The notes below the pieces were generated by a model. That model worked only from the letters and a program-made list of their open reading frames with translations, was not told where the DNA came from and ran no database searches. Below, piece by piece: positions 4,001 to 61,397 of a stretch of 64,000 nt of DNA. Within the stretch, counting starts at the first letter, position 1, and each line of letters starts with the position of its first letter. Both the position numbers and the translations under genes were made by a program. Location: NCBI GenBank assembly GCA_023475565.1, contig JAMCVT010000104.1, forward strand, positions 11,486 through 75,485, read 5' to 3'. Origin of the DNA: Actinomycetota bacterium. GTDB lineage: Bacteria; Bacillota; Desulfotomaculia; Desulfotomaculales; Desulfocucumaceae.

Positions 4001-5007
4001 TTGCGGTGCTGCTGGAGGGTGTTTCTGCCGAAGAGGCGCTGAACATAGCCGAGCGTATGCGCCGAGAGGTGGAGGAATACCGCTTTACAGCTGATGACCA
4101 GAATTTCCACCTCACTCTCAGCATAGGCATGGTCATTGTCGACGGGGAGCACAGCCCCGGGGTCATTCTGTCCCAGGCCGACACCGCCATGTATATGGCC
4201 AAGGAGCAGGGTAAAAACAGGGTGGTGGTTTACCGCCCCGAGGATGGTGTTCTGGCCAGGCTCACCGAGGACAGCCAATGGGCCGCCAGGGTAAAATCAT
4301 CTCTGGCGGAGGACCGTTTTGTTCTGTATTACCAGCCTCTGGTCAGGGTCAGCGAGGACCGGGTGGAGCACTACGAGGCGCTGGTCAGGATGATCGGTGA
4401 AGACAGCAGTATTATATTGCCGGAGCAATTCATACCTATTGCCGAGCGGTTCAGCCTCATGCCCCAGGTTGACCGCTGGGTCTTCAAAAAAGTGATCAGT
4501 ACCCTGCAGAATAACCCCGCCGTAAGAATCTTTATGAATCTGTCAGGCAGCAGCCTGGCCGACGAAACCTTCACCGCCTTTATAGAGGAGCAGCTGGGCC
4601 TGTCGGGAATTGACCCGGGGCGGCTGGGATTTGAAATCACCGAAACAGCGGTGGTGCAGGACATGGTGGCGGCCGAGCGCTGGGTGAAGCGCATCAAGGC
4701 CCTGGGCTGCCGCTTTGCCCTGGATGACTTCGGAGCAGGGTTCAATTCATTCATATACCTGCACAACCTGTCAGTGGACCAGTTAAAAATAGACGGCTAC
4801 TACATCCGCACCCTGGAGACCGACCCCACCCGCTACGCCCTGGTAAAAGCCATGCACGCCCTGGCCCGCACCCTGAACATGGAAACCGTGGCCGAGTATG
4901 TGGAAAATGAGGCCACCCTCCAGATAGTAAAGAATATCGGCATAACCTATGGCCAGGGCTATTACATTGGCAAGCCCCATCCAAGGCTGCCTGGGGGGGA
5001 GGAATAA
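1018..5007 (+). CDS. membrane-anchored multi-PAS GGDEF/EAL signalling protein (c-di-GMP turnover)
   Basis: 1353-aa ORF from 946; the likely start is GTG 1018 after AGGAGGGAGG. It has N-terminal TM helices, an extracytoplasmic sensor segment, three PAS modules, GGDEF (RFGGDEFAVLL) and EAL (EALVR ... QGYYIGKP). Confidence 0.9.
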   Translation: MVNFWEGQIDYIIFLNGLTLVILSAVCLSLIRAGNRLLPWSGLFLFGLCQGVYEWLELVSLSLGDGMQFKFPRVFLLFVSYVFLVEFGRAGIKRITGRVTGRWIFVPLLALSFWGVLGGPDGLNASLRYGPGMAGGVLASAALLISSGGQVRDLDRRLKAAGLGMAFYALFMAVVPQAGFFPASIINQQSFLETAGFSIKLVQALTIFILAMSLWSYLLSQRRIELDLSERYQGRRYVFLIVINVVLILGLGWGSACYWGSFSLNGLRANSRNNISQLSLILLGELTDARRSVTSLSGSPWIAPALISRTTGDIKRADSVLDRYKSAMEASACLLLDREGKVVASSGSGTAESLQGNDFKSMHYIRATLSGDAGWYFEPGGENGSRYYYSGFPVKDSQGRIIGAAVIKKNLAAVERDFRQYRYCFLVDPNGYIYLSSDEDMHYLPLWLPEGGEAVKAVLPVRIEDGDYMLFKGAGYIAARREIGSGGWSVVLLSSTEQVWVYRFFCICITLVLCVLIIVFYTALMSTREWAGRISLSERKYHSLVEGSPNFVKIFDREGRFITANPSGLMAMGWREADVIGKEFSHFWPQDTRPVVEKALAEVLQGERCSFEASCNRNDGVPVTWNVTLYPIYEEDGGCRHLVGISTNVTERRKAEEALRESEAKFRTLYDSANDAIIIMDGTFFVDCNPKALNMFGCDRSRIIGRNLLDFSPERQPDGTSSQEKAGELINAVLDGESRYFQWRHSRPDGTLYDTEISLNRIKLKDMYYVQAIFRDITRRKLREEQLRLHAAALQSVANAIVITDPEGCITWINPAFTVLTGYTSEEAIGKNMSILKSGAHDEGFYKDLWDTIFSGLVWHGETQNRHKSGSLYTEEQTITPVRDEDGRITHFVAIKQDVTARKQQEQQLSYMATHDPLTSLPNRRVLEDSLKRTVARAGRGVHSSLLFMDLDNFKLVNDTLGHTAGDQVLYTLTRLLLNMLRNGDLLVRFGGDEFAVLLEGVSAEEALNIAERMRREVEEYRFTADDQNFHLTLSIGMVIVDGEHSPGVILSQADTAMYMAKEQGKNRVVVYRPEDGVLARLTEDSQWAARVKSSLAEDRFVLYYQPLVRVSEDRVEHYEALVRMIGEDSSIILPEQFIPIAERFSLMPQVDRWVFKKVISTLQNNPAVRIFMNLSGSSLADETFTAFIEEQLGLSGIDPGRLGFEITETAVVQDMVAAERWVKRIKALGCRFALDDFGAGFNSFIYLHNLSVDQLKIDGYYIRTLETDPTRYALVKAMHALARTLNMETVAEYVENEATLQIVKNIGITYGQGYYIGKPHPRLPGGEE

Positions 5008-5013
5008 GCTTGA

Positions 5014-5051
5014 GGGTAATACCTCCGGTCTCCCGACCACAGGTATTACCC
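5014..5051. repeat. 11-bp perfect stem hairpin resembling an armless copy of the heptad-armed element
   Basis: GGGTAATACCT (5014-5024) pairs with AGGTATTACCC (5041-5051). The loop CCGGTCTCCCGACCAC carries CCGGTC/CGACC. The left half resembles the GGGCATTACCTCCGGTCGG flank of copy E4. Confidence 0.6.
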
Positions 5052-5144
5052 ATAAGCAGTCTCCCTCCACCGAAACGGCATTTAATTATATTAAATTTGT
5101 ACAATCCCTCCGGCATACTTTAGATGTATGGGAGGGATTTATTT

Positions 5145-6623
5145 ATGAAAGCTGTGCATGAATTAAGGCTTCTTGAGGAGGCCATTGAGAAGATTACCGG
5201 AAAGGCCCTGGAATTTGGCCTTGATTTCTACAAGATGTATTTCGAGATATGCCCGGCTGAAATTATTTATACCTTTGGGGCTTACGGAATGCCCACCAGG
5301 TTTTCACACTGGACCTTCGGCAAAAGCTACCAGAAAATGAAGACCCAGTATGACTACAACCTCAGCCGGATATACGAGATGGTCATCAACTCCGACCCCT
5401 GCTATGCCTTCTTGCTGGAGGGAAACACCCTGGTGCAGAACAAAATGGTGGTGGCCCACGTGCTGGGGCACAGCGACTTTTTTAAAAACAACGCTTATTT
5501 CAGACAGACCTCCAGGGGTATGGTGGAGACTATGTCCAGCGCGGCCAACCGGTTTAGGGACTACGAGTTCAAACTGGGCAAACTGAAGGTGGAGCAGTTC
5601 CTGGACTCCATTATTGCCATCCAGGAGCAGGTGGACCCATACAGGTATGTCAAGGGTGCCGATAAGGGGGCGGAAAGGGGCGCCGGGGAAGGCGGCTGCG
5701 GCGGCAGGTGCGGGGGCAAGTGCAGCCACGGCCAGGGCAGTAAGGGCCGCCATAAGGAAAAGGAAACACCTTACGACGACCTGTGGGACCTGGAAAAAAA
5801 GGATGGCTGGGGGGGTGGCTGCGGTGAGGAGAAGTCCAACAAATTCCCAGAAAGCCCGGAAAAGGATCTGCTGCTCTTTATAATGACCCATTCCCGGGAC
5901 CTGGAGGACTGGCAGAGAGATGTAATATCGGTGGCCCGCCAGGAAATGCTCTACTTCTGGCCCCAGATGGAAACCAAAATAATGAACGAGGGCTGGGCCA
6001 CATACTGGCACATGAGGATCATGAGGGAGATGGACCTCGATGTGGACGAGGCTATTGACTACGCAAAGATGCACGCCGGTGTGGTTCAGCCCTCAAGAAT
6101 GCGGATCAACCCGTACCTGCTGGGGCTTAAAATATTCGAGGACATAGAAAAGCGGTGGGATGAACCCACTGAGGAAGAAAGAAAAAAATACGGACGCCCC
6201 GGTGGTGAGGGAAGAAAAAAAATATTCGAGGTGCGGGAAACCGAGAACGACATTTCCTTCCTCAGGAACTACCTGACCAGGGAGATAATAGAGGATCAGG
6301 ATCTTTACCTTTTTAAAAAAGTGGGCTCCGAGTGGAAGATCACCGACAAGGAGTGGGAGGCCGTCCGGGACAGCATTGTGGACGGCATGACCTACTGCGG
6401 GTATCCATACATAGTGGTGGAAGACGGGGACTTCAACCGGCGCGGAGAGCTGTACCTCAGACACCAGTTCGAGGGAGTGGAGCTGGATGTTTTCTACCTG
6501 GAGCGCACCCTTCCCCACGTGTTCAAACTCTGGGGCCGCCCGGCCCACCTGGAAACACTGCTGGATAATAAAAAAGTTCTTTTCTCCTACAACGGGGAGA
6601 AGGTCTCTAAAAAATTTGTCTGA
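5145..6623 (+). CDS. spoVR: stage V sporulation protein R (SpoVR family)
   Basis: ATG 5145 follows GGAGGG. The N-terminus LDFYKMYFEICPAEIIYTFGAYGMPTRFSHWTFGK and MNEGWATYWH are typical of SpoVR. There is a Gly/Cys-rich internal linker. Confidence 0.9.
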   Translation: MKAVHELRLLEEAIEKITGKALEFGLDFYKMYFEICPAEIIYTFGAYGMPTRFSHWTFGKSYQKMKTQYDYNLSRIYEMVINSDPCYAFLLEGNTLVQNKMVVAHVLGHSDFFKNNAYFRQTSRGMVETMSSAANRFRDYEFKLGKLKVEQFLDSIIAIQEQVDPYRYVKGADKGAERGAGEGGCGGRCGGKCSHGQGSKGRHKEKETPYDDLWDLEKKDGWGGGCGEEKSNKFPESPEKDLLLFIMTHSRDLEDWQRDVISVARQEMLYFWPQMETKIMNEGWATYWHMRIMREMDLDVDEAIDYAKMHAGVVQPSRMRINPYLLGLKIFEDIEKRWDEPTEEERKKYGRPGGEGRKKIFEVRETENDISFLRNYLTREIIEDQDLYLFKKVGSEWKITDKEWEAVRDSIVDGMTYCGYPYIVVEDGDFNRRGELYLRHQFEGVELDVFYLERTLPHVFKLWGRPAHLETLLDNKKVLFSYNGEKVSKKFV

Positions 6624-6912: not shown

Positions 6913-6988
<76 letters not shown>

Positions 6989-7234: not shown

Positions 7235-8527
7235 ATGACAAACAATACGCTGCCAATTCTGGATAACCTTCCGGGGATGATTTACCGCTGCTCTGCCGAT
7301 GAGAACTGGAGTTTTCAGTATGTCAGCGGGGGATGCCGCTTCCTTACAGGTTTTAAACAGTCCGATTTAATTGAAAGTAAAAAAAATTCTCATAAATCAC
7401 TGGTGTATCCAGGGGACCTGAAAATGGTGCTGAACGTTATAAAATCTGCCATTGCCGGGGGGAGTTCCTATTCTCTCAGGTACAGGATTGTTGACTCCCT
7501 GGGAGTGCCCAGGCAGGTACTGGAACAGGGCCGGGCGGTGATGTCCGATTCCGGTGAGCTTTTATCCCTTGAGGGATTTATTGCAGCGGCCGAAGGCACC
7601 GGGGTGGCGGGGAACTCCTGCGGGAACGCTGCTATGGATCTGCACAGCTGCGAAATGATTAAGGCCCTTCCTGACTTGAAGTTTATGCCGGACAGGGGTG
7701 GATGTTTGCTTCAGTACAAGGAAGCGCGGGGTTTTAGGCTGCCCTATGCCGCCGAAAAGATTGATGGCAGGAACATAAACGAGGCTTTTCCAGGCAATAT
7801 GGCCGCTCAAATAAGGCATTTTGCCGAAAGGGCACTGCAAACGGCGGAGGTTCAAAATTTTATTTTTCAGATTCCGGTGTCCGGGGCTGCCCGGGAGTAT
7901 GAGGCCAGGGTCACCATCAGCGGGGCCGCTGACAACAGTATGCACCGGGAGAAGCCGCACCGCAGCCGCAGCGCCCGCAGCTCAATAGTCCAGGCGCTGG
8001 TGAAGGCGCTGGAGGCAGGGGACTTCATTACCGGTGGGCATGCCGACCGTCTGCAGGATATTGTGGAAAAGGTGGCCCGGGATCTGGGCCTGTCCGATAG
8101 GAGTATAACGGACCTAAGGCTTCTGGCAAAATTTCACGATATAGGAAAAGTTGGCATCCCGGACCGCATTCTCTTCAAACCCGGCCCCCTTACAATGGAC
8201 GAATACAATGAAATGAAGCGCCATACCGAGATTGGCCGCTGTATTGCCGAAGCAGCCCCCGACCTGGCACCCATTGCCGACTGGATATTAAAGCACCACG
8301 AGTGGTGGAATGGGGAGGGGTATCCCCATGGGCTGAAGGGGGATAATATTCCCATGGAGTGCCGCATACTGTCCATGGCTGACGCATACGACGCCATGAC
8401 CAGTGACCGCCCCTACCGCAAGGCTATGCAGCACGAGGCTGCGGTGGAAGAGATTGCCAGGTGCGCGGGAAGCCAGTTCGACCCGGAGCTGGTGCCGGTA
8501 TTTATCCGCTCGGTGTCGGGAAGGTAA
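7235..8527 (+). CDS. PAS-domain HD-GYP phosphohydrolase
   Basis: N-terminal PAS (LPGMIYRC...), then an HD-GYP domain (KFHDIGKVGIP, HHEWWNGEGYPHGLKG, ADAYDAMTSDRPYR). Confidence 0.85.
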   Translation: MTNNTLPILDNLPGMIYRCSADENWSFQYVSGGCRFLTGFKQSDLIESKKNSHKSLVYPGDLKMVLNVIKSAIAGGSSYSLRYRIVDSLGVPRQVLEQGRAVMSDSGELLSLEGFIAAAEGTGVAGNSCGNAAMDLHSCEMIKALPDLKFMPDRGGCLLQYKEARGFRLPYAAEKIDGRNINEAFPGNMAAQIRHFAERALQTAEVQNFIFQIPVSGAAREYEARVTISGAADNSMHREKPHRSRSARSSIVQALVKALEAGDFITGGHADRLQDIVEKVARDLGLSDRSITDLRLLAKFHDIGKVGIPDRILFKPGPLTMDEYNEMKRHTEIGRCIAEAAPDLAPIADWILKHHEWWNGEGYPHGLKGDNIPMECRILSMADAYDAMTSDRPYRKAMQHEAAVEEIARCAGSQFDPELVPVFIRSVSGR

Positions 8528-8550
8528 TATAAAATTTGGGCTATTCGCGG

Positions 8551-10473
8551 CTAATTCTGTCCCCTTACGTAATTAAGCAGGCCTCCGGCCTTTATTATTT
8601 TGACCTGCCGGTCCGAAAGGCTGTGCTTTACGTGGTAGGTCATGTTTTTACCGGCGTTATATACCTTTATGGTATTGGCCGGCAGGGACTCTGTCAGTTT
8701 CTCCAGCACCAGGGCGTCCCCGGCCTCTATGCTGTCATAATCACCTTCATTTTCAAACATAAGCGGCAGGAGCCCGAAATTTACCAGGTTCTGCATATGA
8801 ATCCTGGCGAAGGATTTGGCTATTACGGCCTTTATGCCCAGGTAAAGGGGCGCTAAAACGGCGTGCTCACGGCTGGACCCCTGGCCGTAGTTGGCCCCGC
8901 CCACTATTATACCCCCGCCGGCCTCCTGCGCCCTCCTGGCAAAGGAGGAGTCCACCCTTTCAAAGGCGTACATGGATATGGCCGGTATATTGGACCTGAG
9001 CGCCAGTATTTTGGCGCCGGCAGGCATGATGTGGTCGGTGGTGATATTGTCTCCAACTTTCAGGAGCACCTCACCCTGTATGCTGTTCCCCATAGGATAA
9101 GATTTTGGGAAGGGCTTTATGTTTGGCCCCCTCACGAGGCATTCATTTTCACTGTCAGCCGGAGGGGGTATAATCATGCTGTCATCCACCGGGTAGCTTT
9201 CCGGCAGTGATACCTCAACGGGCTGTCCCAGGTCCCGGGGATCGGTTATTTCCCCTGTAAGGGCTGCAGCCGCCGCAGCCTCGCAGCTGACCAGATAAAT
9301 GCCGGCATCGGCCGTGCCGCTCCTTCCTTCGAAATTACGGTTGGAGGTTCTAAGCGATATACCGCCGGACGGGGGGGACTGCCCCACACCAACGCAGGGA
9401 CCGCAGGCACACTCCAGTAGCCTTGCCCCGGCCCCAACCAGGTCGGCCAGGCTGCCGTTGGAGGCCAGTGCTCTAAGTACCTGGCGGGACCCCGGGGCAA
9501 TGACCAGGCTTACTTCGGGGTGTACGGTTTTGCCTTTTAGTATGGAGGCTACCTTCATCAGGTCGGTAAAAGACGAGTTTGTGCAGCTGCCTATAAAAAC
9601 CTGGTCTACCTTTTTACCCGCCGCCCCGGACAGCTTTACCACATTGTCCGGCATGTGGGGCAGGGCAATGAGGGGTTCCAGCCCGTTCAGGTCTATATCC
9701 ACCACTTCATCATAAACGGCGTCCGGGTCAGGCAGCATTTCAGTGAAATTATGCACCCTGGACTGGGCGGCCAGGAAACGCCTGGTAACCTCATCCGAGG
9801 GGAACACCGATGAGGTGGCTCCCAGCTCGGCCCCCATGTTGGTAATGGTGGCCCGCTCGGGCACGCTGAGCTGTGACACCCCTTCGCCGGTGTACTCCAT
9901 CACCCTGCCCACACCCCCCTTGACGGTCAGCCTGCGCAGCACTTCAAGTATTATGTCCTTGGCTGAGACCCAGGGGGAAGGCTTGCCGTGCAGCCTTATA
10001 TTGACCACCCGGGGCATGGCCAGGTAAAAGGGGTATCCGGCCATGGCGGTGGCCACGTCCAGGCCTCCGGCGCCTATGGCCAGCATTCCCAGACCCCCGC
10101 AGGTGGGGGTGTGGCTGTCCGATCCCAGCAGTGTTTTACCCGGTACTCCGAAGCGCTCAAGATGCACCTGGTGGCATATTCCGTTGCCCATCCGCGAAAA
10201 AAAAGCTCCGAATTTTGCGGCTCCGCTTTGGAGAAATCTATGGTCATCGGCGTTTTCATAGCCGACCTGCAGTGTGTTGTGGTCAATGTAGCTGACTGAA
10301 AGCTCTGTCTTGACTGAAGGAAGGCCGATGGCCTCGAATTCCAGGTAGGCCATGGTTCCCGTAGCATCCTGGGTAAGTGTCTGGTCTATTCTTATGGCGA
10401 TTTCCTTCCCCGGTTCCATTTCACCTTCCACCAGGTGAGAGGAAATTATTTTCTGGGTAATGCTCAGTCCCAC
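8551..10473 (-). CDS. aconitate hydratase (640-aa form)
   Basis: Aconitase motifs are present: GSDSHTPTCGGLG, IGSCTNSS, NRNFEGR, plus a C-terminal swivel domain. Confidence 0.9.
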   Translation of the reverse strand: MGLSITQKIISSHLVEGEMEPGKEIAIRIDQTLTQDATGTMAYLEFEAIGLPSVKTELSVSYIDHNTLQVGYENADDHRFLQSGAAKFGAFFSRMGNGICHQVHLERFGVPGKTLLGSDSHTPTCGGLGMLAIGAGGLDVATAMAGYPFYLAMPRVVNIRLHGKPSPWVSAKDIILEVLRRLTVKGGVGRVMEYTGEGVSQLSVPERATITNMGAELGATSSVFPSDEVTRRFLAAQSRVHNFTEMLPDPDAVYDEVVDIDLNGLEPLIALPHMPDNVVKLSGAAGKKVDQVFIGSCTNSSFTDLMKVASILKGKTVHPEVSLVIAPGSRQVLRALASNGSLADLVGAGARLLECACGPCVGVGQSPPSGGISLRTSNRNFEGRSGTADAGIYLVSCEAAAAAALTGEITDPRDLGQPVEVSLPESYPVDDSMIIPPPADSENECLVRGPNIKPFPKSYPMGNSIQGEVLLKVGDNITTDHIMPAGAKILALRSNIPAISMYAFERVDSSFARRAQEAGGGIIVGGANYGQGSSREHAVLAPLYLGIKAVIAKSFARIHMQNLVNFGLLPLMFENEGDYDSIEAGDALVLEKLTESLPANTIKVYNAGKNMTYHVKHSLSDRQVKIIKAGGLLNYVRGQN

Positions 10474-12753: not shown

Positions 12754-12774
12754 GCGGCTAATGGGCATTTCTTT

Positions 12775-12987
12775 CCGGTCGGAATTCAGAATTCAGAATC
12801 CAGGAGTCAGAATGGCTTGAGCATTACTTATTTGAATAAAACAGACAGGCTTTAACATTATAAATTCGGCTTTCGCCGCCCGTTGGGCGGCGTTTTATGT
12901 GCCGTTCGAAAGACATGGCAATCATTGGGCGAAAAGGAATGCTTTTCTATTCTGAATTCTGACTTCTGAATTCTGTATTCCGACCGG
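12775..12987. repeat. heptad-armed inverted-repeat element, copy E1
   Basis: The left arm CCGGTCGGAATTCAGAATTCAGAATCCAGGAGTCAGAATGG (12775-12815) matches the reverse complement of the right arm (12947-12987) at 35 of 41 positions. The centre holds a terminator and AAAAGGAATGC next to the right arm. Confidence 0.9.
12874..12897 (+). terminator. intrinsic terminator embedded in E1
   Basis: CGCCGCCC-GTT-GGGCGGCG followed by TTTTATGT, downstream of the 10717-12753 gene. Confidence 0.75.
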
Positions 12988-13012
12988 ATTTATTCTCAGT
13001 ATGAGCATAATT

Positions 13013-14167: not shown

Positions 14168-15001
14168 ATGCGGCCTCTGTGGAAAGGCGCAGTAAGTTTC
14201 GGACTTATATATGTGCCTGTAAAAATGTACGCGGCCACTGAAAAAAAGGACATAAAATTCAATTATCTGCATGAAAAGTGCAAAACGCCGGTACAGTACC
14301 GCAAATACTGCCCGTATTGTGACACCGAGGTGACCCAGGAGGAGGTGGTGCGGGGCTACGAATATGAAAAGGGCAAGTTTGTGGTCATGAAAGAGGAGGA
14401 TTTTGAACGTCTTCCCGGGGAAAAGACCCGCAGCGTAGAGATACTGGACTTTGTGGATCTGGGTGAAATAGACCCGGTGTTTTACGATAAGGCCTATTAT
14501 CTGGCCCCCGGGGACGGCGGGCAGAAGGTGTACGACCTTCTAAAAAGAGCCATGGGGGAGACCAAAAAGGTGGCGGTGGCCAGGGTGGTCATAAGGAGCA
14601 AAGAGGCTCTGGCCGTTTTAAGGACAGCCGAAAATGCGCTTATGATGAGCACCATGTTCTACCCGGACGAGGTCAGAAACCCGGCCGTGATAGAGGAGCT
14701 GGGATACCGGGTGGAACTTCATGACAACGAGGTAAAAATGGCGGTCAGCCTGGTGGAAAACCTTTCTTCACGCTTTGAGCCGGAAAAATACACCAACCGT
14801 TACCGGGAGGCGCTCATGGAGGCCATTCAAGCCAAGGTCACCGGCCGGGAGGTAGAGGCGCCGGCAGCCCCCGGGGCCGATAACGTGGTGGACCTGATGT
14901 CGGCCCTGAAGGCCAGCATCGACCTGGCCAAAAAGGCCAGGGAAGGGGAAGCTGACACAAAGGAGACGCCGCCCGCCCGCAGGAGGAGGAAGACGGTTTG
15001 A
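14168..15001 (+). CDS. ku: Ku protein (NHEJ DNA-end binding)
   Basis: MRPLWKGAVSFGLIYVPVKMY is a canonical bacterial Ku N-terminus, with a basic C-terminal tail. ATG 14168 follows GGGGGG. Confidence 0.92.
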   Translation: MRPLWKGAVSFGLIYVPVKMYAATEKKDIKFNYLHEKCKTPVQYRKYCPYCDTEVTQEEVVRGYEYEKGKFVVMKEEDFERLPGEKTRSVEILDFVDLGEIDPVFYDKAYYLAPGDGGQKVYDLLKRAMGETKKVAVARVVIRSKEALAVLRTAENALMMSTMFYPDEVRNPAVIEELGYRVELHDNEVKMAVSLVENLSSRFEPEKYTNRYREALMEAIQAKVTGREVEAPAAPGADNVVDLMSALKASIDLAKKAREGEADTKETPPARRRRKTV

Positions 15002-15024
15002 TACTTAGATGAAAAGGCTTCGGG

Positions 15025-15176
15025 GGTCGGAATCCAGAATTAAGAATTCAGAAGCCAGAAGGGGAAAGGCATTCCTTTGCTGACAAAGCAACTTGCTGCT
15101 AATATTATTTTGACTAAAGAATGCAGCATGCAATAAACTTCTGAATTCTGACTTCTGGCTTCTGTATTCCGACCGG
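15025..15176. repeat. heptad-armed inverted-repeat element, copy E2 (centre modules inverted relative to E5)
   Basis: Left arm GGTCGGAATCCAGAATTAAGAATTCAGAAGCCAGAAGG; right arm CTTCTGAATTCTGACTTCTGGCTTCTGTATTCCGACCGG. GGCATTCC sits next to the left arm, and TTATTGCATGC (as reverse complement) next to the right arm. Confidence 0.9.
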
Positions 15177-15193
15177 AAAAACTGTCCCTTAAG

Positions 15194-15649
15194 CTAGAAA
15201 AGGCTGTATATCTCCAGCAGTATGGCGGTAACGGCTGCCGCCATCACCGGGCCGCAGGGGACGCCCCTTAAAAAAACGGTACCCAGTATGGTGCCCACCG
15301 TCATTCCGAAAATTATTTCAGGCATCACCTTCATGAGCTTTAAGCCCTCATTGTTCAGGTGGGTGGCCAGGGCTCCGCCGAAAAGGGCAATGACACCGGG
15401 CACTGTTGAAAAGCTGTATTTCACTTCTTTTATACTGACCTGGCCTTTGGCCAGGGGCAGCAGTATATAGACCATCAGCACCAGCAGCCCGAATTTGAGG
15501 CCTCTTTTTTCCAGCACGGGAAGCACATACTGCTCCATACCGGAAAATTTAACGGCCATCAGTATGCAGCTGGCCATGGCCACCAGGTTGGACTTTCCTA
15601 CTATGGCTATGATGAGAAGAAACAGCAGTACCAGCATAGGCGTGTCCAT
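15194..15649 (-). CDS. UPF0756/DUF441 family membrane protein
   Basis: 151-aa 4-TM protein. MDTPMLVLLFLLIIAIVGKSN... fits the family pattern as I recall it. Confidence 0.75.
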   Translation of the reverse strand: MDTPMLVLLFLLIIAIVGKSNLVAMASCILMAVKFSGMEQYVLPVLEKRGLKFGLLVLMVYILLPLAKGQVSIKEVKYSFSTVPGVIALFGGALATHLNNEGLKLMKVMPEIIFGMTVGTILGTVFLRGVPCGPVMAAAVTAILLEIYSLF

Positions 15650-18459: not shown

Positions 18460-18651
18460 TCACTGCCCGGGTAGTTGATCTTCGAATTCTTTTTTATAGT
18501 TGCCCAAATTTATGCCGGTCAGTCTAATTACTAGGTCCGCTGCCAACGCCAGTATAGTGCCCATGCCCGACATGGTTACTACTACCAATAAGCCGCTCAT
18601 CATTCTGTTCGTCTTGGCCAGCCCGGCCACCCACTCAAAGTATTCGTACAT
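18460..18651 (-). CDS. small membrane protein upstream of the TauE gene
   Basis: The ORF opens at 18669; ATG 18651 follows AAGGGAGGG. One TM helix. Confidence 0.45.
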   Translation of the reverse strand: MYEYFEWVAGLAKTNRMMSGLLVVVTMSGMGTILALAADLVIRLTGINLGNYKKEFEDQLPGQ

Positions 18652-18683
18652 GCTTGACCCTCCCTTCATTTACTAGATGTGGC

Positions 18684-22468: not shown

Positions 22469-24784
22469 TTGGAAAAAACACTTGTGATTGTTGAATCCCC
22501 GGCCAAGGCCAAGAGCATTGGCAAGTTCTTGGGCAGCAAGTACTTTGTCAAGGCCTCGATGGGCCACATAAGGGACTTGCCCAAAAGCCAGTTCGGGGTT
22601 GACCCCGATAAGGGCTTTGAGCCCAAGTACATTGCCATCAGGGGAAAGGGCGACATAATAAAGGAGCTGAGGACTGCGGTAAAGAAGGCCGGCCGGGTGC
22701 TTCTGGCCTCCGACCCTGACCGGGAAGGAGAGGCCATAGCCTGGCACCTGCAGCACCTGCTCGGGCTTGATCCCGGTCAGAAATGCCGTATAGAGTTTAA
22801 TGAGATTACCAAAAACGCAGTCTTAAGCGCGGTAAAAAACCCCAGGCCCATAGACGGAAACAGGGTCAACGCCCAGCAGGCCAGACGCATACTGGACAGG
22901 CTGGTGGGGTATAACTTAAGCCCCCTGCTCTGGAAAAAGGTAAAAAAGGGCTTAAGCGCCGGGCGCGTCCAGTCTGTGGCGGTACGCCTCATCTGCGACC
23001 GGGAGGAAGAAATAGATTCCTTTATCCAGGAGGAATACTGGACTCTGACAGCCATGCTGGCCAGGGGAAAGGAAGCCTTTGAAGCCAGGCTGCACAGGAT
23101 AGGGGACCGGAAGGCGGACATACCCAGCGAGGCCAGGGTGAATGAAATACAGGACGACCTGAAGGGCAAGAGCTTTGTGGTGGCCAGGGTGGTCCGCAAG
23201 GAAAAGCTTCGCCAGCCTCCGGCGCCGTTCATCACCAGCAGCCTTCAGCAGGAGGCGTACCGGAAGCTTAATTTTGCCGCCAGGAAGACCATGTCTGTGG
23301 CCCAGCAGCTTTACGAGGGTATAGACCTTGGTAAAGACGGGCCTTCCGGACTTATAACCTATATAAGGACCGATTCCACCAGGGTTTCCGATACCGCCCG
23401 GCAGGAGGCGGCCGATTTTATAAGCAGGCGCTATGGGAAGGAATATTTAGGGAGCGGAGTGAGACCGTCTGCCGCTCCCAAGGGAAAGATACAGGATGCC
23501 CACGAGGCCGTCAGGCCTACCTCGGTAGATAAAGAGCCGGAATTGGTAAAGGCTTTCCTGACCAATGACCAGTACAGGCTTTACAGGCTGGTCTGGGATA
23601 GGTTTATGGCCAGCCAGATGAGCCCGGCGGTAATCGACACCACCAGCGTGGACATTAAGGCCGGTGATTACACCTTCCGGGCCACCGGGTCCATTATAAA
23701 ATTTAACGGCTACATGAGGGTATATACTGAAGCCAGGGACGAGGGGCCGGAAGAGGAAGACAACCGGACCCTGCCCCAGCTTGCCGGGGGGGACCGGCTG
23801 GAGAAGAAGGCCCTTGTTCCGAAGCAGCACTTTACCCAGCCGCCTCCCCGGTATTCCGATGCCACTCTGATCAAGGCCCTGGAGGAAAAGGGCATCGGAC
23901 GGCCCAGCACCTACGCCCCCATTGTGGAAACAATCCAGAAGCGCGGGTACGTGGTGAAGGAGAAAAAACAGTTTTATCCCACCGAGCTGGGTATGGTGGT
24001 GGTGAATTTACTCAAAGAATATTTCAGAGACATTATTGATGTTGAATTTACCGCCGCCATGGAAGATAAGCTGGACAATATAGAAGAGGGTGACATCGAG
24101 TGGGTGGGGGTGCTGAGAGAATTTTACCTGCCCTTCAGGGAGATACTGACCAGAGCCGAGAAGGAGATTGGACATGTCGACCTGGCCGATGAGGTCACTG
24201 ACGAGCTGTGTGAAAACTGCTCCCGGAACCTGGTGATTAAGATGGGCCGCTACGGCAAGTTTCTGGCCTGCCCCGGTTTTCCCGAGTGCAGGTACACCAG
24301 GCCTTTGCTGGAGCCTACCGGGGTCAAGTGCCCCCAGTGCTCCGGGGAACTGGTATTAAGGAGAAGCAAGAAGGGGAGGACCTTTTACGGGTGCAGCTCA
24401 TACCCGGACTGCCAGTTTACCGTGTGGGACCGCCCTTCCCAGGAAAAGTGCCCTGATTGCGGCGGGATGATGGTTTACAAAAAATACAAGGGTAAAGAAA
24501 CGCTCAAATGTTCGAACCCGGACTGCGGGACCCAGGATAAAAAGGCCGACACCGTGGAAAAGGTCCGCAAGGTCCCGGCCAGGGAAGCCGGAAAAGCCGG
24601 GGCTGACTCTAAAAAAGCCCCCTCCAGGGCAGCCGGAAAGGCCGGGGCGGACCCCAAAAAAGCTCCCTCCAAGGCAGCCGGTAAGGCCGGGGCTGCCAAG
24701 AAGACCAAAAAGGTTACCGGTTCTGCCGGCGGTGAAGGCCCGGGCCAGAAAAAGAACGGCAGCAGGATTGCATCGGGAAGGTAG
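22469..24784 (+). CDS. topA: DNA topoisomerase I
   Basis: TOPRIM VIVESPAKAKSIGKFL, active-site region ITYIRTDS, three CxxC zinc ribbons and a Lys/Ala-rich repeat tail. TTG 22469 follows GAGG; the ORF opens at 22460. Confidence 0.95.
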   Translation: MEKTLVIVESPAKAKSIGKFLGSKYFVKASMGHIRDLPKSQFGVDPDKGFEPKYIAIRGKGDIIKELRTAVKKAGRVLLASDPDREGEAIAWHLQHLLGLDPGQKCRIEFNEITKNAVLSAVKNPRPIDGNRVNAQQARRILDRLVGYNLSPLLWKKVKKGLSAGRVQSVAVRLICDREEEIDSFIQEEYWTLTAMLARGKEAFEARLHRIGDRKADIPSEARVNEIQDDLKGKSFVVARVVRKEKLRQPPAPFITSSLQQEAYRKLNFAARKTMSVAQQLYEGIDLGKDGPSGLITYIRTDSTRVSDTARQEAADFISRRYGKEYLGSGVRPSAAPKGKIQDAHEAVRPTSVDKEPELVKAFLTNDQYRLYRLVWDRFMASQMSPAVIDTTSVDIKAGDYTFRATGSIIKFNGYMRVYTEARDEGPEEEDNRTLPQLAGGDRLEKKALVPKQHFTQPPPRYSDATLIKALEEKGIGRPSTYAPIVETIQKRGYVVKEKKQFYPTELGMVVVNLLKEYFRDIIDVEFTAAMEDKLDNIEEGDIEWVGVLREFYLPFREILTRAEKEIGHVDLADEVTDELCENCSRNLVIKMGRYGKFLACPGFPECRYTRPLLEPTGVKCPQCSGELVLRRSKKGRTFYGCSSYPDCQFTVWDRPSQEKCPDCGGMMVYKKYKGKETLKCSNPDCGTQDKKADTVEKVRKVPAREAGKAGADSKKAPSRAAGKAGADPKKAPSKAAGKAGAAKKTKKVTGSAGGEGPGQKKNGSRIASGR

Positions 24785-24808
24785 TTGTGGCTTATGGGTA
24801 GTAACTAT

Positions 24809-25066
24809 GGTCAGAATACAGGAGACAGAATACAGGAGACAGGAGTTTTTGCAAGTTATGCCCTGAGGTTATAAATTCCTCATTACTGTGGCATTAAAAG
24901 ATTTATTTCAATTATCCGCAAACTGCACCATTAGAGGTAGAGAGTAGATTCCCTCTAGGCTACAGAGCACGGAGGCTTAAGGCCTGACTAATATGCTTTT
25001 GGCAACTTATAAGGCTGCCTGGAAATTCTGTCTACTGTCTCCTGTCTACTGTCTACTGTCTACTGG
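24809..25066. repeat. heptad-armed element, variant copy E3 (CAGGAGA/CAGAATA versus CTGTCTA heptads)
   Basis: The left arm is GGTCAGAATACAGGAGACAGAATACAGGAGACAGGAG, and the right arm is ATTCTGTCTACTGTCTCCTGTCTACTGTCTACTGTCTACTGG. The centre edges TTTTTGCAAGTTATGCCCTGAGG and CTTATAAGGCTGCCTGGAAATTCTG are homologous to E5. Confidence 0.85.
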
Positions 25067-25084
25067 CGCAACAGGAGGTTTGTT

Positions 25085-26410
25085 TTGGATTATATAACCG
25101 TTGTGGGCGCCGGCCTGGCCGGGTCGGAGGCTGCCTGGCAGGCGGCCCGGCTTGGCGTAAGGGTAAGGCTGTATGAAATGAGGCCTGTACAAACCACCCC
25201 GGCCCACCGGACCGGAGGCTTTGCCGAGCTGGTCTGCAGCAATTCGCTGCGCTCAGCCTCGCTGGAGAATGCGGTGGGGCTGCTGAAGGAAGAAATGCGC
25301 AGGCTGGACTCGCTTATAATGGCGGCGGCGGATCGTCACAGGGTTCCCGCCGGTGGCGCTCTGGCTGTAGACCGGGACCTTTTTTCCTCGGCGGTGACCG
25401 GTGCTCTGGAAGAAAACCCCCTGGTGGAGGTTATCCGGGAGGAAGTAGCTTCTATACCGGAAGGAGGTATAGTTGTGCTGGCCACCGGCCCCCTCACCCC
25501 GGAAACCATGGTGCGGTCCATAAAGGAGCTGACCGGCCAGGAGTATCTTTATTTTTACGATGCTGTAGCTCCCATAGTAACGCTGGAGTCCATCAACCTG
25601 GAAAAGGCTTTCCTCTCCTCCAGGTACGGAAAGGGAGAGGCTGATTACATAAACTGTCCCATGGACAGGGAGGAATATATCAGTTTCCGGGAGGAGCTGG
25701 CCGGGGCCGAAAGAGCCCCCAGAAAGGATTTTGAAAAGGAAGTTAACTTTGAGGGATGTATGCCTATTGAGGTGCTGGCCTCCAGGGGAGAGGACACTAT
25801 GCGCTACGGCCCTTTAAAGCCGGTGGGCCTTACCGACCCGCACACCGGTCAAAGGCCTTACGCCGTGGTCCAGCTGAGGCAGGATAATGCCGCCGGCACC
25901 CTTTACAATATGGTGGGGTTCCAGACCCACCTCAAATGGCCCGAGCAGCAGAGGGTCTTAAGAATGATACCAGGCCTGGAGAAGGCTGAATTTGCCCGCT
26001 ACGGGGTTATGCACCGGAATACGTACATAAACTCTCCGGTGGTGCTGGAGGCCACCTACCAGTGCAGACTGAGGCCCGGGCTGTTCTTTGCCGGGCAGAT
26101 TACCGGGGTGGAAGGCTATGTGGAGTCGGCTTCCTCGGGACTGGTGGCCGGCATAAACGCCGCCCGCCTGCATATGGGAAGAGAACTGCCGGCTTTTCCC
26201 CCGGTGACCGCCCACGGCTCCCTGGCCCGCTATATCACAGGCGCCGACCCGCGCAAGTTTCAGCCTATGAATGTTACCTTCGGCCTTTTCCCTGAGCTGG
26301 AAAGCCACGTAAAGGACCGTAAGGTCAGGAATTCCATGTATGCCGAAAGAGCCCTCGGCAGTCTGGCAGGATTCCTGAAAACCTTAGAGATAAGAGATAT
26401 AGGAAAATAG
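25085..26410 (+). CDS. trmFO: methylenetetrahydrofolate--tRNA-(uracil-5-)-methyltransferase TrmFO
   Basis: [19 protein letters not shown] motif and ELVCSNSLR, with full-length similarity to the family. The TTG start follows AGGAGG. Confidence 0.93.
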
Positions 26411-26451
26411 ATAATTTCCAAAGGGTTGGCAAGTGAGAGTCACCCTTGCGC

Positions 26452-26496
26452 TTGCGGGGTGAAGGACCGGTAGTCCTGAGGGGCGGCAGCCCCTTC
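26452..26496 (+). repeat. 46-nt conserved motif, copy A
   Basis: TTGCGGGGTGAAGGACCGGTAGTCCTGAGGGGCGGCAGCCCCTTC ends 18 nt before the xerC ATG. Confidence 0.85.
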
Positions 26497-26513
26497 TTAA
26501 TAAGCGAGGGACT

Positions 26514-27440
26514 ATGATTTATCATTATATTGACAGCTATATAAATTACCTGGAGACCGAAAAGAACTGCTCCGGGCACACTGTGTCGGGATATCGCCGG
26601 GATTTGTTTCACGGTGTTGATTTTTTTGCAGGGGCCCTGGGCAGGAAGGATTCTGAACTGCTGCCCGGGGATATTGACGTAAGGCTGATGAGGTCTTACC
26701 TGGGGGACCTGTTTTACAGCGGGCTGGCCAAGACTACCGTTTCCAGACGTCTTTCCGCCTGGAGGTCTTTTTTTCGCTACCTTGGCCGCGAGGGCCTGAT
26801 AGAAAGGAATCCCCTCAAGGGGCTGTCCTCCTTAAAGGCCGGCCGGAGACTTCCCCACTTCCTGTTCCGGGAGGAGTGCGGCGTCCTTATCGAGTCTCCG
26901 GGGGGCGGGAGTCCCCTGCCGCTGAGAGACAGGGCCATTATGGAGGTTTTATACTCCTCCGGCATAAGGGTGGGGGAGTTGGTGAGCCTTGATCTGGAAA
27001 ATGTAAGGCTGAGCGCCGGGGATATTACTGTGATGGGGAAGGGTTCCCGGGAAAGGGTTGCCCCCCTGGGTTCGTATGCGGTCGAGTCACTTAGGCTGTA
27101 TCTGGATGAAGGCAGGCCCAGGCTGGTAAAGGACTCCGGGGAAAGAGCGGTATTCGTAAATTTCCGGGGAGGCAGGATTACTGACCGGGGGGTAAGGAAA
27201 ATAATTAAAAAATATGTGAACCTGCTGGGCCTGCAGAGCACCATCAGCCCCCACACTATGCGCCACACCTTTGCCACCCACATGCTGGACAACGGCGCCG
27301 ATCTGAGGGCGGTCCAGGAAATACTGGGGCACAAAAACCTGTCCACGACACAGATATATACTCATCTGACCAGAGAGCGTCTAAAACAGGTGTACTTAAA
27401 GTCCCATCCCAGGGTTAAAATGAAAAAAGATGAAGGCTGA
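26514..27440 (+). CDS. xerC: tyrosine recombinase XerC
   Basis: The catalytic region is [12 protein letters not shown]...[14 protein letters not shown]. The position after trmFO is conserved in Firmicutes. Confidence 0.92.
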
Positions 27441-28059: not shown

Positions 28060-28063
28060 AAAC

Positions 28064-28311
28064 GCTTATTCTGAAAAAAACCACTGTCGGAATACAGAAT
28101 TCAGAATTCAGAATTCAGATTTCCGGGTTGCCAAAAGTAGTCACCAAGGATAATGAAAATTCGGGTCCTTTTAAGGCCACAGAGGACACAGAGTTATATC
28201 TGCACGACTAATCAGCCTCATAATGACTTATTAGGAATGCCCAAACCATTTTTGAATTCTGACTCCTGACTTCTGACTTCTGTATTCCGACCGGAGGTAA
28301 TGCCCATTAGC
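28064..28311. repeat. heptad-armed element, copy E4 including outer flank modules
   Basis: The modules run GCTTATTCTGAAAAAAACCAC, TGTCGGAATACAGAATTCAGAATTCAGAATTCAGAT, centre, GAATTCTGACTCCTGACTTCTGACTTCTGTATTCCGACCGG, AGGTAATGCCCATTAGC. The element ends 6 nt before the hslU RBS. Confidence 0.9.
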
Positions 28312-28330
28312 TATTTGAGGAGGTTTTGAG

Positions 28331-30619: not shown

Positions 30620-30726
30620 GTAGTTGCCAAGCGGCACCATCAGAGGTTGAAAATACAAGGAATGCCCCCAAACCCTTCTGTATTCTGAATTCTGTATTCC
30701 GACCGATAAGAATTTCAGTATAAGCG
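30620..30726 (+). repeat. half copy of heptad-armed element (right arm only) with GTAGTTGCC...GCGGCACC module
   Basis: The sequence runs GTAGTTGCCAAGCGGCACCATCAGAGGTTGAAAATACAAGGAATGCC, then CTTCTGTATTCTGAATTCTGTATTCCGACCG, then ATAAGAATTTCAGTATAAGCG. No left arm is present upstream. Confidence 0.85.
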
Positions 30727-31587: not shown

Positions 31588-31605
31588 TAGCTTTTTTTGC
31601 CTGGT

Positions 31606-31728
31606 GGGGGCACTTTAGTGGTCGTCAGTCGTAGGGCATCGGACGTCGGTAAGAGGGGATTTGACCGTGGGTCAAATGTCAACGGGACTTACGACTGACG
31701 ACCTACGACTGACGACTGAAGGTGCCCC
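31606..31728 (+). terminator. long heptad-repeat hairpin (variant E9, CGACTGA heptads) ending in a T-tract
   Basis: GTCGTCAGTCGTAGG (31621-31635) pairs perfectly with CCTACGACTGACGAC (31701-31715). An outer GGGGCAC/GTGCCCC stem and an inner ATTTGACC-GTG-GGTCAAAT hairpin are present, followed by TGCCTTTTT. Confidence 0.7.
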
Positions 31729-31865
31729 TGCCTTTTTAATGTGCCTCCCAAGCCCTGCAGCTGCAAAAGAATCGTTTGCCGGGGGTTAATTTGGGAGATA
31801 ATACATAGCACTGGCATTTTGGAGAGCACTCAATTATTGATTTTTATACCGGAGGAGGAATGGAT

Positions 31866-34411: not shown

Positions 34412-34428
34412 TCTCACAGGCACTGCTT

Positions 34429-34603
34429 TCCGGTCGGAATCCAGAATTCAGAAGCCAGGAGTCAGAATTTTTTGCAAGCTGTACTCTGAGGGCAGGCCGA
34501 ATGCCTTGATTTATAGCTGTCTTTTGACCTATAAGGAATGCCTGAAATTCTGGATTCTGAATTCTGACTCCTGTATTCCGACCGCAAAGAATTTCAGAAT
34601 AAG
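34429..34603. repeat. heptad-armed element, copy E5 (reference orientation)
   Basis: The modules run CCGGTCGGAATCCAGAATTCAGAAGCCAGGAGTCAGAAT, TTTTTTGCAAGCTG, centre, CTATAAGGAATGCCTGAA, ATTCTGGATTCTGAATTCTGACTCCTGTATTCCGACCG, CAAAGAATTTCAGAATAAGC. Confidence 0.9.
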
Positions 34604-34614
34604 CTATTCCGGGG

Positions 34615-40741: not shown

Positions 40742-40746
40742 GAATA

Positions 40747-40913
40747 CTTATACTGAAATTATTACCGGTCGGAATACAGAATTCAGAATTCAGAAGTCAG
40801 AATGCCTTAGGCATTCCTTACAAGTTGTTCCGTCTCCGGATTACTGCATGCAAAAAATCTGGATTCTGACTCCTGGCTTTTGGCTTCCGACCGCATAGAA
40901 ATTCAGAATAAGC
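40747..40913. repeat. heptad-armed element, copy E6 (inverted module order) with both outer flank modules
   Basis: The modules run CTTATACTGAAATTATTA, CCGGTCGGAATACAGAATTCAGAATTCAGAAGTCAGAAT, GCCTTAGGCATTCCTTACAAG, centre, GCATGCAAAAAATC, TGGATTCTGACTCCTGGCTTTTGGCTTCCGACCG, CATAGAAATTCAGAATAAGC. Confidence 0.9.
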
Positions 40914-40923
40914 TATTTTCGTA

Positions 40924-41004
40924 GTAGTTGCCTATACTGCAAGCGGCACCGTCAGATTATGAAAATACAAGGAATGCCCGGAATTCTGAATTCTGGGTTC
41001 TGAC
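40924..41004 (+). repeat. half copy of heptad-armed element, paralogous to 30620-30726
   Basis: GTAGTTGCCTATACTGCAAGCGGCACCGTCAGATTATGAAAATACAAGGAATGCCCGGAATTCTGAATTCTGGGTTCTGAC, followed by the 16-bp palindrome AATACTTATAAGTATT (41013-41028). Confidence 0.85.
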
Positions 41005-41050
41005 AGGAAAGCAATACTTATAAGTATTTTTACACCAAGGAGGAATTTAG

Positions 41051-58587: not shown

Positions 58588-58605
58588 GCTAAAGGGTACT
58601 GCACC

Positions 58606-58834
58606 CCGGTCGGAATCCAGAATTCAGAATTCAGAATGAGCATACGGTTCTGATCTGTATCCGGGCTGCTTGGGAAACTGTCTCTCGTTGTTATGCCTGC
58701 GCCACCCGAGGGGTGGCTTTTAGTTTAGCCGGAAAAGCATATGCACACTATGGCCCCAAAAGTAATTATTGGCCATCTCTTTAAAGGAAGGCTGAAACCG
58801 CTTCTGAATTCTGGATTCTGGATTCTGAATTCCG
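58606..58834. repeat. heptad-armed element, copy E7
   Basis: The left arm is CCGGTCGGAATCCAGAATTCAGAATTCAGAAT and the right arm is CTTCTGAATTCTGGATTCTGGATTCTGAATTCCG. The centre holds a terminator, with AAAGGAAGGCTGAAA next to the right arm. Confidence 0.88.
58701..58721 (+). terminator. intrinsic terminator embedded in E7
   Basis: GCCACCC-GAG-GGGTGGC followed by TTTT, downstream of phoU. Confidence 0.7.
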
Positions 58835-58921
58835 CCACCCAGAGGCGGTCAGAACATTTATGTTTAAAACATGTCGATAATAGTTTAAAATAGGGTAGTA
58901 AAATGTTTCGGAGGTGCCGGT

Positions 58922-61337: not shown

Positions 61338-61397
61338 GGCTTATAGGTACTGCTTTGCGGTCGGAATTCAGAATACAGGAGTCAGAAGCCAGAATGG
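61338..61397. repeat. left flank and left arm only of a heptad-armed element (E8)
   Basis: GGCTTATAGGTACTGCTTT then GCGGTCGGAATTCAGAATACAGGAGTCAGAAGCCAGAATGG. No centre modules or right arm follow within the window. Confidence 0.85.

Follow-up and report, generated by a model that had tools for sequence, protein, structure and literature searches.

The locus and its repeat family

The window, i.e. the whole stretch of 64,000 nucleotides analysed here (contig JAMCVT010000104.1, positions 11,486 to 75,485 of the forward strand), carries a very dense family of non-coding palindromic repeats, the arms of which are tandem 7-nt units (heptads) in phase with a CAG core. It is core housekeeping DNA of a Desulfotomaculia ("Peptococcaceae") bacterium, with a G+C content of 53%. 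The genes include those of aconitase, Ku and LigD, the series dprA-topA-trmFO-xerC-hslV-hslU-codY-rpsB-tsf-pyrH-frr-uppS-cdsA, and ispG, proS, nusA, infB, pnp, phoR, phoU, rimO and pgsA; no transposase is found among them. The DNA is 87% identical to that of Peptococcaceae bacterium BICA1-7 (L016) over the orthologous stretch. It is syntenic with Betzabe metagenome-assembled genome (MAG) 120 (L104) and with MAG119, a Desulfovirgula MAG and JAIMBR01 (L102, L103 and L105 as a set).

The reality of the family is supported by several lines of evidence. The terminal motif CCGGTCGGAAT, with one mismatch at most, is found 11 times in the window against 1.03 expected, and CAG-phased arrays of period 7 with at least three units are found 17 times, against 0.54 in shuffled sequences (maximum, 3). 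One match of each kind (20374 and 55511, respectively) is a chance match within an open reading frame (ORF). Tandem Repeats Finder gave a period of 7 at each arm. Furthermore, when a profile hidden Markov model (HMM) trained solely on 64 arms of other genomes was run on the window, it recovered 16 arms with E = 1e-15 to 5e-5, each of them at a position listed in the sequence-only reading of this DNA and none elsewhere. Every copy listed there was found in its place, and the dense modular family that it proposed is borne out by this enrichment and by the independent profile. The density is about one element per 5 kb. All copies are intergenic, as had been claimed, once spurious ORFs are discounted by synteny with L102-L105. 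The centre and outer modules exist as they had been described, and the variant placed at 31606-31728 and the "shell" at 5014-5051 are real as well (Table 1). Further copies, on which the family had been made to depend, are present beyond the window in related Desulfotomaculia MAGs.

At the gathering thresholds of Rfam, a tRNA gene (6916-6988, minus strand) was the sole match in the window, and nothing was matched in seven related or distant loci. At a permissive threshold (E <= 1) over positions 24000-42000, no match overlapped any element. A search of the literature, both for the repeats as written-out sequences and for repeats of Desulfotomaculum, returned nothing relevant. As far as this comparison with Rfam and the literature shows, the family is apparently uncatalogued, in agreement with the earlier remark that no RNA family could be assigned to it.

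Table 1. Repeat elements of the window and their parts
Feature	Position	Strand	Remarks
"Shell"	5008..5058		Two type-2 outer modules and CCGGTC/GACC joined without heptads; directly after a stop codon
Focal full element	12757..13006		Outer module, left arm, 135-nt centre, right arm, outer module; between convergent genes
Focal left arm	12779..12813	+	TCGGAAT TCAGAAT TCAGAAT CCAGGAG TCAGAAT; HMM E = 1.1e-15
Terminator-like hairpin in focal centre	12874..12892	+	8 G-C pairs, then a T-run; unique host-like DNA; kept in L016
Focal right arm	12949..12983	-	TCGGAAT ACAGAAT TCAGAAG TCAGAAT TCAGAAT (minus strand); HMM E = 1.3e-14
Full element, Ku/DUF441 (convergent)	15013..15194		Only copy with sigma-70-like matches in its centre
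Full element, topA/trmFO	24792..25066		ACAGGAG/ACAGTAG heptad type; orthologous spacers of relatives carry other heptad types
Full element, hslV-hslU operon spacer	28064..28311		Filled at the same site in MAG120 (L104)
"Half" copy	30620..30725	-	One arm, A module and IS110-left-end-like stretch (30630-30651)
Variant, rpsB-tsf terminator	31604..31740	+	TCAGTCG-type heptad arms nested in the intrinsic-terminator stem
Full element, small ferredoxin gene/uppS	34413..34605		Orthologous in MAG120
Full element, ispG/proS	40745..40914		A/B polarity opposite to most others
"Half" copy	40924..41024	-	Degenerate arm, A module and IS110-left-end-like stretch (40942-40965)
Full element, phoU/DUF520 gene	58588..58837		Terminator-like hairpin in centre (58701-58717)
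Solo left arm	61338..61397	+	Downstream of pgsA

Architecture of the elements

Among the matches listed, 72-82 arms from about 50 loci of related MAGs carry common non-heptad modules, and 72 arms from the window and about 50 related loci were aligned on the anchor heptad TCGGAAT. Each arm consists of a terminal module, CCGG, the anchor heptad and then, usually, four heptads of the form N-CAG-R-A-K; the heptads are in tandem and have no internal palindrome. At both ends, similarity within the family sets in about 22-24 nt outside TCGGAAT, with (G)CTTAT or (G)CTAAT. The terminal modules (GCTTAT.. or GCTAAT..GGGCATT) are of two types, ..ACTGAAAT.. and ..GGGCATT... Exactly four heptads follow the anchor in 39 of 69 arms, and five in only two of them. 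As the first base of a heptad, A is common only in heptad 1 and G is never found, and the last heptad almost always ends in ..AAT. The two arms of an element tend to differ in type: one is rich in CAGAAT, and the other begins with ACAGAAG-TCAGAAG (alpha and beta arms). Since the length of the array is capped and the variants are position-specific, unconstrained slippage is not the whole story.

Next to the arms lie inner modules of three types, namely A, with the sequence GGCATTCCTT, B, with TTTTTGCA(A/T)G, and C. The centres, 54-182 nt between the inverted arms, share only these modules of 9-15 nt and are otherwise unrelated, with the exception of a 40-nt stretch common to the two "half" copies. 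Strong intrinsic-terminator hairpins of unique sequence are situated in two of the centres (Table 1). Strictly anchored inverted arm pairs number 14 and span 75-239 nt between the anchors. The elements are thus defined in their end architecture and mosaic in their interior, i.e. neither free microsatellites nor uniform miniature transposable elements with inverted repeats (MITEs).

Two candidate features of the centres were rejected. An internal sigma-70 promoter (TTGCAx, about 17 nt, TATAAT) is not a feature of the family, since only the element at 15025 scores. A hammerhead-like reading of CUGACGA...GAAA beside the C-type module fails on topology.

Filled and empty sites in related genomes

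In a pattern scan covering one genome per species, the listed matches include BICA1-7, Betzabe MAG117, MAG119, MAG120 and MAG121, BRH_c4a, HOT.CON.130 and Desulfovirgula. Comparison of orthologous spacers shows that whole elements are present or absent. The spacer between hslV and hslU is filled in the window (271 nt) and in MAG120 (231 nt), and it is empty (36-45 nt) in MAG119, Desulfovirgula and JAIMBR01. The spacer between the ferredoxin gene (fer4) and uppS shows the same distribution, with an element in the window and MAG120 and none in the three other genomes. In addition, a site filled in one further locus (L041) is empty in another (L065). At the focal site of BICA1-7, the right arm is identical at 35 of 35 positions and the centre is kept.

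No direct repeat that would correspond to a target-site duplication was seen at any complete copy or filled/empty pair, although divergence of 20-30% at the empty sites limits the resolution of this comparison; the sequence-only reading had likewise noted none at the copies. The flanks of the elements, which are A/T-rich, mirror each other.

At the fer4-uppS element, the window and MAG120 have nearly identical terminal and inner modules, whereas the heptad variants are scrambled. In four orthologous arms, the C-A-G-x-A core is kept at 76 of 80 positions and the remaining positions at 40 of 60 (95% versus 67%; Fisher p = 1.8e-5). Change at these three remaining positions is faster than in the adjacent modules. 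The orthologous arms retain five units while the variants change. Of the earlier remark that heptad number and order differ between copies, from which slippage was suggested, the part on the order is upheld, since the order turns over rapidly between orthologues, whereas the number is capped at the anchor plus four.

The spacer between rpsB and tsf holds the nested-heptad form in the window, L103 and L105, and a plain terminator in L102 and L104. Over 51 pairs in the three filled copies, there are two compensatory changes, five one-sided compatible changes and about seven breaks in single sequences. With three sequences, this is suggestive of co-variation in the stem at best.

In MAG120, arrays with a period of about 30 nt (L104:1017-1371 and 8519-8669) replace the heptad elements at the spacers orthologous to about 15001-15194 and 24784-25085 of the window. 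In the Ku-DUF441 spacer, about five direct units are followed by about five inverted ones; the array between topA and trmFO is shorter. Both are built from the same blocks, GCATTTCC..GGTCGGAGG / CCTCCGACC..GGAAATAC. These arrays are a higher-order mosaic of the terminal modules of the family, resembling the bacterial interspersed mosaic element (BIME).

Placement, folding and pairing of the arms

The genes neighbouring 49 element regions are co-directional in 39 cases, convergent in nine and divergent in one, against 172, 41 and 41 for background spacers (p = 0.006); the elements thus avoid spacers with divergent promoters. The first heptad is typically located 28-38 nt past a stop codon, so that the terminal module adjoins the end of the gene. 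The polarity of the A module versus the B or C module relative to transcription shows no bias (4 versus 3).

The focal element has a predicted RNA fold of -99.8 kcal/mol; the z values of the hairpin are -8.45 as RNA and -3.9 as DNA. The predicted stems are roughly 40 bp in length and imperfect. The rpsB-tsf variant (-74.8 kcal/mol, z = -8.78) also folds strongly, and the shell forms a near-perfect hairpin (-30.8 kcal/mol, z = -7.67). In the focal element, 35 positions of the two arms are complementary, as had been counted, over 40 positions rather than the 41 given before.

The arms of one element are no more alike than arms taken from different elements (26.6/35 versus 26.9/35 identity; permutation p = 0.80). 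By this comparison, the periodic defects noted earlier in the stem do not result from selection for one particular stem. Paired arms (n = 43) have 4.44 intact heptads on average, and solo arms (n = 50) have 4.82, or about 4.2 once an outlier of 36 units is removed (one-sided p = 0.096); doublets are thus not measurably more intact than singlets. Because the arms do not co-vary while the core is fixed, the constraint acts on the sequence of the heptad core and not on the pairing of the variable positions. The combination of a fixed core, variable neighbours and arms that do not co-vary points to sequence-specific recognition over simple base-pairing.

Insertion of IS110 elements into the heptads

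In the BICA1-7 orthologue of the focal element, the left arm is interrupted by a gene with DEDD_Tnp_IS110 and Transposase_20 domains (L016:1518-3062). A second, independent copy of this insertion sequence (IS), encoding a protein 96% identical, interrupts the left arm of a different standard element (L233; JGI 3300048576). The IS110 element is about 1.57 kb in length and is inserted inside a heptad. Both heptad junctions read ..AAGCCAG|ACCC(C/A)CATGCCGC ... TTATTTTCAGGGCAG|AAT.., and copies at non-heptad targets (L228 and L232) start with the same left end.

IS110 elements are guided by bridge RNAs and commonly target REP-like repeats (PMC11208160). In the present copies, segments of the left end (roughly 250 nt) correspond to the flanks. 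In the two copies inserted in heptads, a guide-like AAGCCAG is the same as the left flank (AAGCCAG), and the segment TGAGTAG corresponds to the left flank TGAATAG in L232. The left-end CA(G/T)GGCAG equals the right end exactly in four of five copies and at seven of eight positions in L228. The right flank agrees with ..AG-AAT or ..AG-ATT of the left end in three copies (L016, L233 and L231) and does not in L228 and L232. Left-end segments thus co-vary with the flanks and the right end as the bridge-RNA model predicts, which suggests a programme that targets the heptads. This would be a natural example of a bridge-type IS110 element apparently programmed against a host repeat in Gram-positive anaerobes.

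It should be mentioned that a "C-type centre" was rejected as a module of the family, since it is the first stem-loop of the IS110 left end. As a remnant, this stem-loop recurs in many element centres; its junction in the compact elements of L045 and L082 is exactly CAG|ACCCCC, which is also present in L089 and L091. Matches of an IS110 left-end profile to the two "half" copies of the window have E = 0.014 (17/17 exact) for the stretch at 30630 and E = 0.5 for that at 40942. Part of the mosaic, the "half" copies included, is plausibly composed of scars of IS110 insertions, the support being modest for the copies of the window.

In two other loci (L089:245-530 and L045:6631-6803), an IS110-left-end-like module is followed by a G+C-rich non-coding stretch, which is mutually similar, has no Rfam match and extends for at least 280 nt in L089 and for about 170 nt to the contig end in L045. 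No transposase ORF follows the module in L089. The stretch might be a non-autonomous IS110 derivative or another RNA.

Heptads in other lineages

By our own estimate, the 17-base search pattern would be matched about 70 times by chance in the genome collection, and only extended or paired arrays were counted. Inverted arrays of TCAGAAT, TCAGGAG, TCAGAAG and ACAGTAG around short loops or GC hairpins occur in Pyrinomonadaceae, Blastocatellia, Gemmatimonadaceae, an unclassified bacterial MAG (L048) and some viral contigs. Loci of Verrucomicrobiota, Lentisphaerota and Nostoc contain these variants as single arrays. The searched loci also contain other heptad types (CAGTGAC, CAGCNNT and AATTCCC). 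The terminus specific to the family was found on one contig only in the JGI metagenomes. The composite element is thus narrow in distribution, whereas the heptad type is broad. This recurrence of the same heptad core across phyla is the most interesting point that the analysis raises.

The sequence (CAGAATN)3CAG is present on at least 120 viral contigs, and 54-74 of these loci belong to one phage group. The array of this group encodes a protein linker, and the viral count therefore overstates the number of independent occurrences. In these phages (L162:~4050-4085, L131, L108 and L144:~14340-14390; IMG/VR), (AATCCAG)5 or (CAGAATA)n lies within an ORF and encodes the ..NPIQNPESRIQNPE.. linker of a replication-organiser-like protein. 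Phage origins with iterons are often situated in the region of the replication-organiser gene.

A heptad type without CAG, (AATTCCC/GATTCCC)n, is present in relatives, at L050:~5600-5650 and L103:~18620-18660. It is the reverse complement of the Xanthomonas heptamer GGGAATC (PMC4692102).

Comparison with known repeats

The closest behaviour is that of repetitive extragenic palindromes (REP), of the BIMEs and of REPINs, the REP doublets that form hairpins. Like these, the present family is extragenic and of high copy number, with inverted doublets, a poorly conserved spacer and hairpins in single-stranded DNA or mRNA. Both also have singlets as apparent decay products, mosaics of modules and no target-site duplication, and both are favoured landing sites of the IS110 family (PMC11208160). 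The differences lie in the unit and in its maintenance. The REP unit is a palindrome of 20-40 nt tagged with GTAG/CGTC, whereas the arm described here is a tandem heptad array. In REPINs, doublets are reported to be better conserved than singlets, and compensatory changes to maintain the hairpin (Bertels & Rainey 2011; PMC3116915), whereas in this family the arms have no compensatory changes and the doublets are not measurably better kept. The REP, BIME and REPIN repeats belong to proteobacteria, and the present host to a lineage of Gram-positive anaerobes. No ORF of the Y1 type, i.e. the REP-associated tyrosine transposase (RAYT), flanked by repeats was found in the window or in the 8-kb loci around the pattern matches. 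The earlier assignment to a REP/BIME type consequently holds for the mosaic behaviour, but not for strict REP membership.

Heptamer repeats between genes have been on record since the 1990s; they include the cyanobacterial STRR heptamers, Xanthomonas GGGAATC and Beggiatoa TAACTGA. To our knowledge, neither a function nor an origin has been established for them. The GGGAATC heptamers of Xanthomonas and GGGGAYT of Nostoc form about 70 convergent inverted pairs per genome, which are capable of forming stem-loops, lie near the upstream ORF at the same sites in related species and vary in length and sequence, with no known function (Rehm et al. 2015; PMC4692102). They share with the present family the tandem 7-nt units, the intergenic location and the frequent inverted pairing. 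Since such inverted pairs have already been described (PMC4692102), this kind of element is not unprecedented. The unit N-CAG-R-A-K, however, has no G-quadruplex potential, and the arrays are short, capped and embedded between conserved terminal and inner modules, i.e. composite. The copy number of the units is not freely variable, unlike that of the Xanthomonas and Nostoc heptamers.

The direct TAACTGA repeats of Beggiatoaceae, cyanobacteria and Bacteroidetes, for which single-strand-binding readers have been proposed (MacGregor 2015; PMC4679880), are a second close system, with which the cyanobacterial STRR heptamers are grouped. On the other strand they read T-CAG-TTA and are CAG-phased like the family. 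They are also mostly intergenic, scattered over distant phyla and of unknown function. Nearly all of them are direct repeats just upstream of starts without flanking modules, whereas the present elements are inverted pairs downstream of genes.

The Correia/NEMIS, ERIC, RUP and BOX-type MITEs have a uniform interior and, typically, a defined target duplication, for example TA for Correia (review, PMC10969869). These MITEs and the present family are alike as small, intergenic, non-coding inverted-repeat elements of 100-300 nt that can form long hairpins; co-transcription with neighbouring genes and an effect of the hairpins on mRNA processing may be shared as well. The family differs in its unrelated centres and in the absence of a visible duplication. 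Terminal inverted repeats are present, but strict MITE membership fails for want of a visible target-site duplication and of a common interior, and an autonomous element with the same termini was found neither in the window nor in about 50 related loci. The heterogeneity of the centres supports the earlier preference for mosaics over MITEs.

Origin and possible function

The explanation that we favour, with confidence a little better than even, is that the copies are non-coding palindromic mosaic repeats with length-capped, CAG-phased heptad arms, restricted to the Desulfotomaculia ("Peptococcaceae") clade around BICA1-7 and the Betzabe MAGs, and that they would be functionally analogous to REPINs and BIMEs. 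It draws on the observed anatomy, distribution, insertion polymorphism, core constraint and targeting by IS110. The elements would spread as DNA by means of a trans-acting enzyme. This enzyme most plausibly acts on a hairpin or on single-stranded DNA, because a 7-nt register would suit single-strand over double-strand readers. The arrays would then change by slippage or gene conversion within the length limit, and solo arms and the shell are apparent decay forms of the element. By analogy with REP, BIME and Correia elements, the transcribed hairpins might act as intercistronic or 3' structures that influence the processing or stability of mRNA, or read-through.

Several observations weigh against this explanation. 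No ORF family that could supply the mobilising enzyme recurs beside the arms in about 0.4 Mb of related loci, and no transposase is present in the window. The boundaries of the element and any target duplication are not fixed to the nucleotide, since the closest empty sites are 20-30% diverged. The unrelated centres, sometimes with host terminators, fit poorly to a simple cut-and-paste unit, and in one case (rpsB-tsf) a host terminator encloses the arms. The lack of co-variation between arms and the fact that doublets are not measurably better preserved than singlets both differ from what is reported for REPINs. Finally, a lineage-specific mobile element leaves unexplained why unrelated phyla have the same heptads.

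Two candidates for a mobile partner were rejected. Near the arms, the only multi-copy ORFs that recur belong to families such as ABC ATPases and sigma-54 activators. Facing arm pairs 1.5-2 kb apart, considered as the ends of autonomous elements, enclose ordinary genes, namely radical SAM, GDPD, thioesterase, CotF and DUF2512 genes.

It is unlikely that the copies are classical MITEs, i.e. deletion derivatives of an IS of the DDE type in which the heptads serve as multiple subterminal transposase-binding sites. Such sites are found at the ends of Tn7 and Mu and of eukaryotic hAT and CACTA elements. The long terminal inverted repeats, the fixed count of subterminal repeats and the difference between alpha and beta ends would be in line with this origin, as would the insertion polymorphism between genomes and the presence of solo ends and internally deleted shells. 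It is opposed by the lack of a visible target-site duplication at complete copies and filled/empty pairs, by interiors that are unrelated between copies and by the absence of a transposase between the arms or recurring nearby. In addition, a spacing of 7 bp seems too tight for typical double-strand DNA-binding domains.

A cis-regulatory RNA is likewise improbable. Here an oligomeric protein that binds single-stranded RNA with a 7-nt register would attach to the (N-CAG-R-A-K)n strand and, by opening or closing the hairpin, adjust termination, processing or translation at many operons. HutP reads NAG-N4 repeats in this manner, and a cold-shock protein binds about 7 nt. An invariant C-A-G-x-A core whose neighbours are free resembles protein recognition and not a pairing constraint, the elements are confined to transcribed spacers and depleted from divergent ones, and the same heptads form hairpins in several phyla; candidates for heptamer binding have been discussed (PMC4679880). 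The absence of polarity relative to transcription, however, means that half of the copies would present the complementary strand. There is no co-variation for a specific RNA fold in the main family, and no candidate reader protein was identified. The conserved non-heptad DNA modules and the presence or absence of whole elements fit mobile DNA better.

Decidedly doubtful is the idea that the arrays are immobile heptameric microsatellites, produced in place by polymerase slippage at hairpins and akin to the repeats of Xanthomonas, Nostoc and Beggiatoaceae. Heptamers are the commonest long simple repeats in many bacteria and form inverted intergenic pairs in Xanthomonas (PMC4692102, PMC4679880). 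The scrambling of heptad variants between orthologous copies, the different heptad types in the same spacer of different genomes and the arms nested in a host terminator, which look like growth within a hairpin, would all agree with this origin. Slippage is nevertheless unable to create shared terminal and inner modules of 20-30 nt; the array length is capped instead of broadly distributed; and whole elements with their modules are present or absent as units.

Of similarly low probability is a broader possibility in which N-CAG-R-A-K is a recognition code common to several phyla; hairpins of the same heptad variants are found in Bacillota, Acidobacteriota, Gemmatimonadota, Verrucomicrobiota, Lentisphaerota and some phages. 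The code would be read as single-stranded RNA or DNA by a conserved oligomeric protein with a 7-nt register, much as HutP reads NAG-N4, and the hairpins would be switchable sites of termination or processing throughout the genome. The Peptococcaceae elements would then be its mobile carriers, and the IS110 bridge RNAs would be an evolved means of exploiting it.

That the repeats are due to chance or to faulty assembly, suggested only by the general risk that repeats are mis-assembled in metagenomes, is effectively refuted by the large excess over shuffled sequence, by elements at orthologous sites common to independent assemblies and by contigs 100% identical to the window DNA in three separate sequencing runs (Logan).

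With its density, fixed arm architecture, filled and empty orthologous sites and measurable constraint, the family provides an unusually tractable case of heptamer repeats. Elements of this kind break metagenome assemblies and sit within operons such as hslVU, and they need masking or modelling in annotation.

Other features of the window

A separate repeat of about 48 nt, TTGCGGGGTGAGGGACCGAAAGTCCTAAAGGGGCGGCAGCCCC, is present at 26451-26498, 34145-34192 and 56269-56316, upstream of the genes for xerC, ferredoxin and a histidine kinase at a distance of 15-140 nt. The orthologous spacers of L102-L105 lack it, its predicted fold is unremarkable (z = -0.4 to -1.0) and it has no Rfam match. The spacer between the DUF520 gene and rimO is filled by six tandem heptads, GTGAGAT/GTGAGAA (59418-59461), with no inverted partner.

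At 30769-30859, the t44 RNA, which is the leader of rpsB, is matched below threshold (25 bits versus a gathering score of 44; E = 0.16), and related sequence is kept in L102, L104 and L105. Since this match lies downstream of the ATG at 30748, the true start of rpsB is probably downstream of the listed ORF start. The 3' part of topA contains three tandem copies of a 45-nt unit (24569-24703; 80-69% identity), which encode a repeated lysine- and glycine-rich C-terminal segment.

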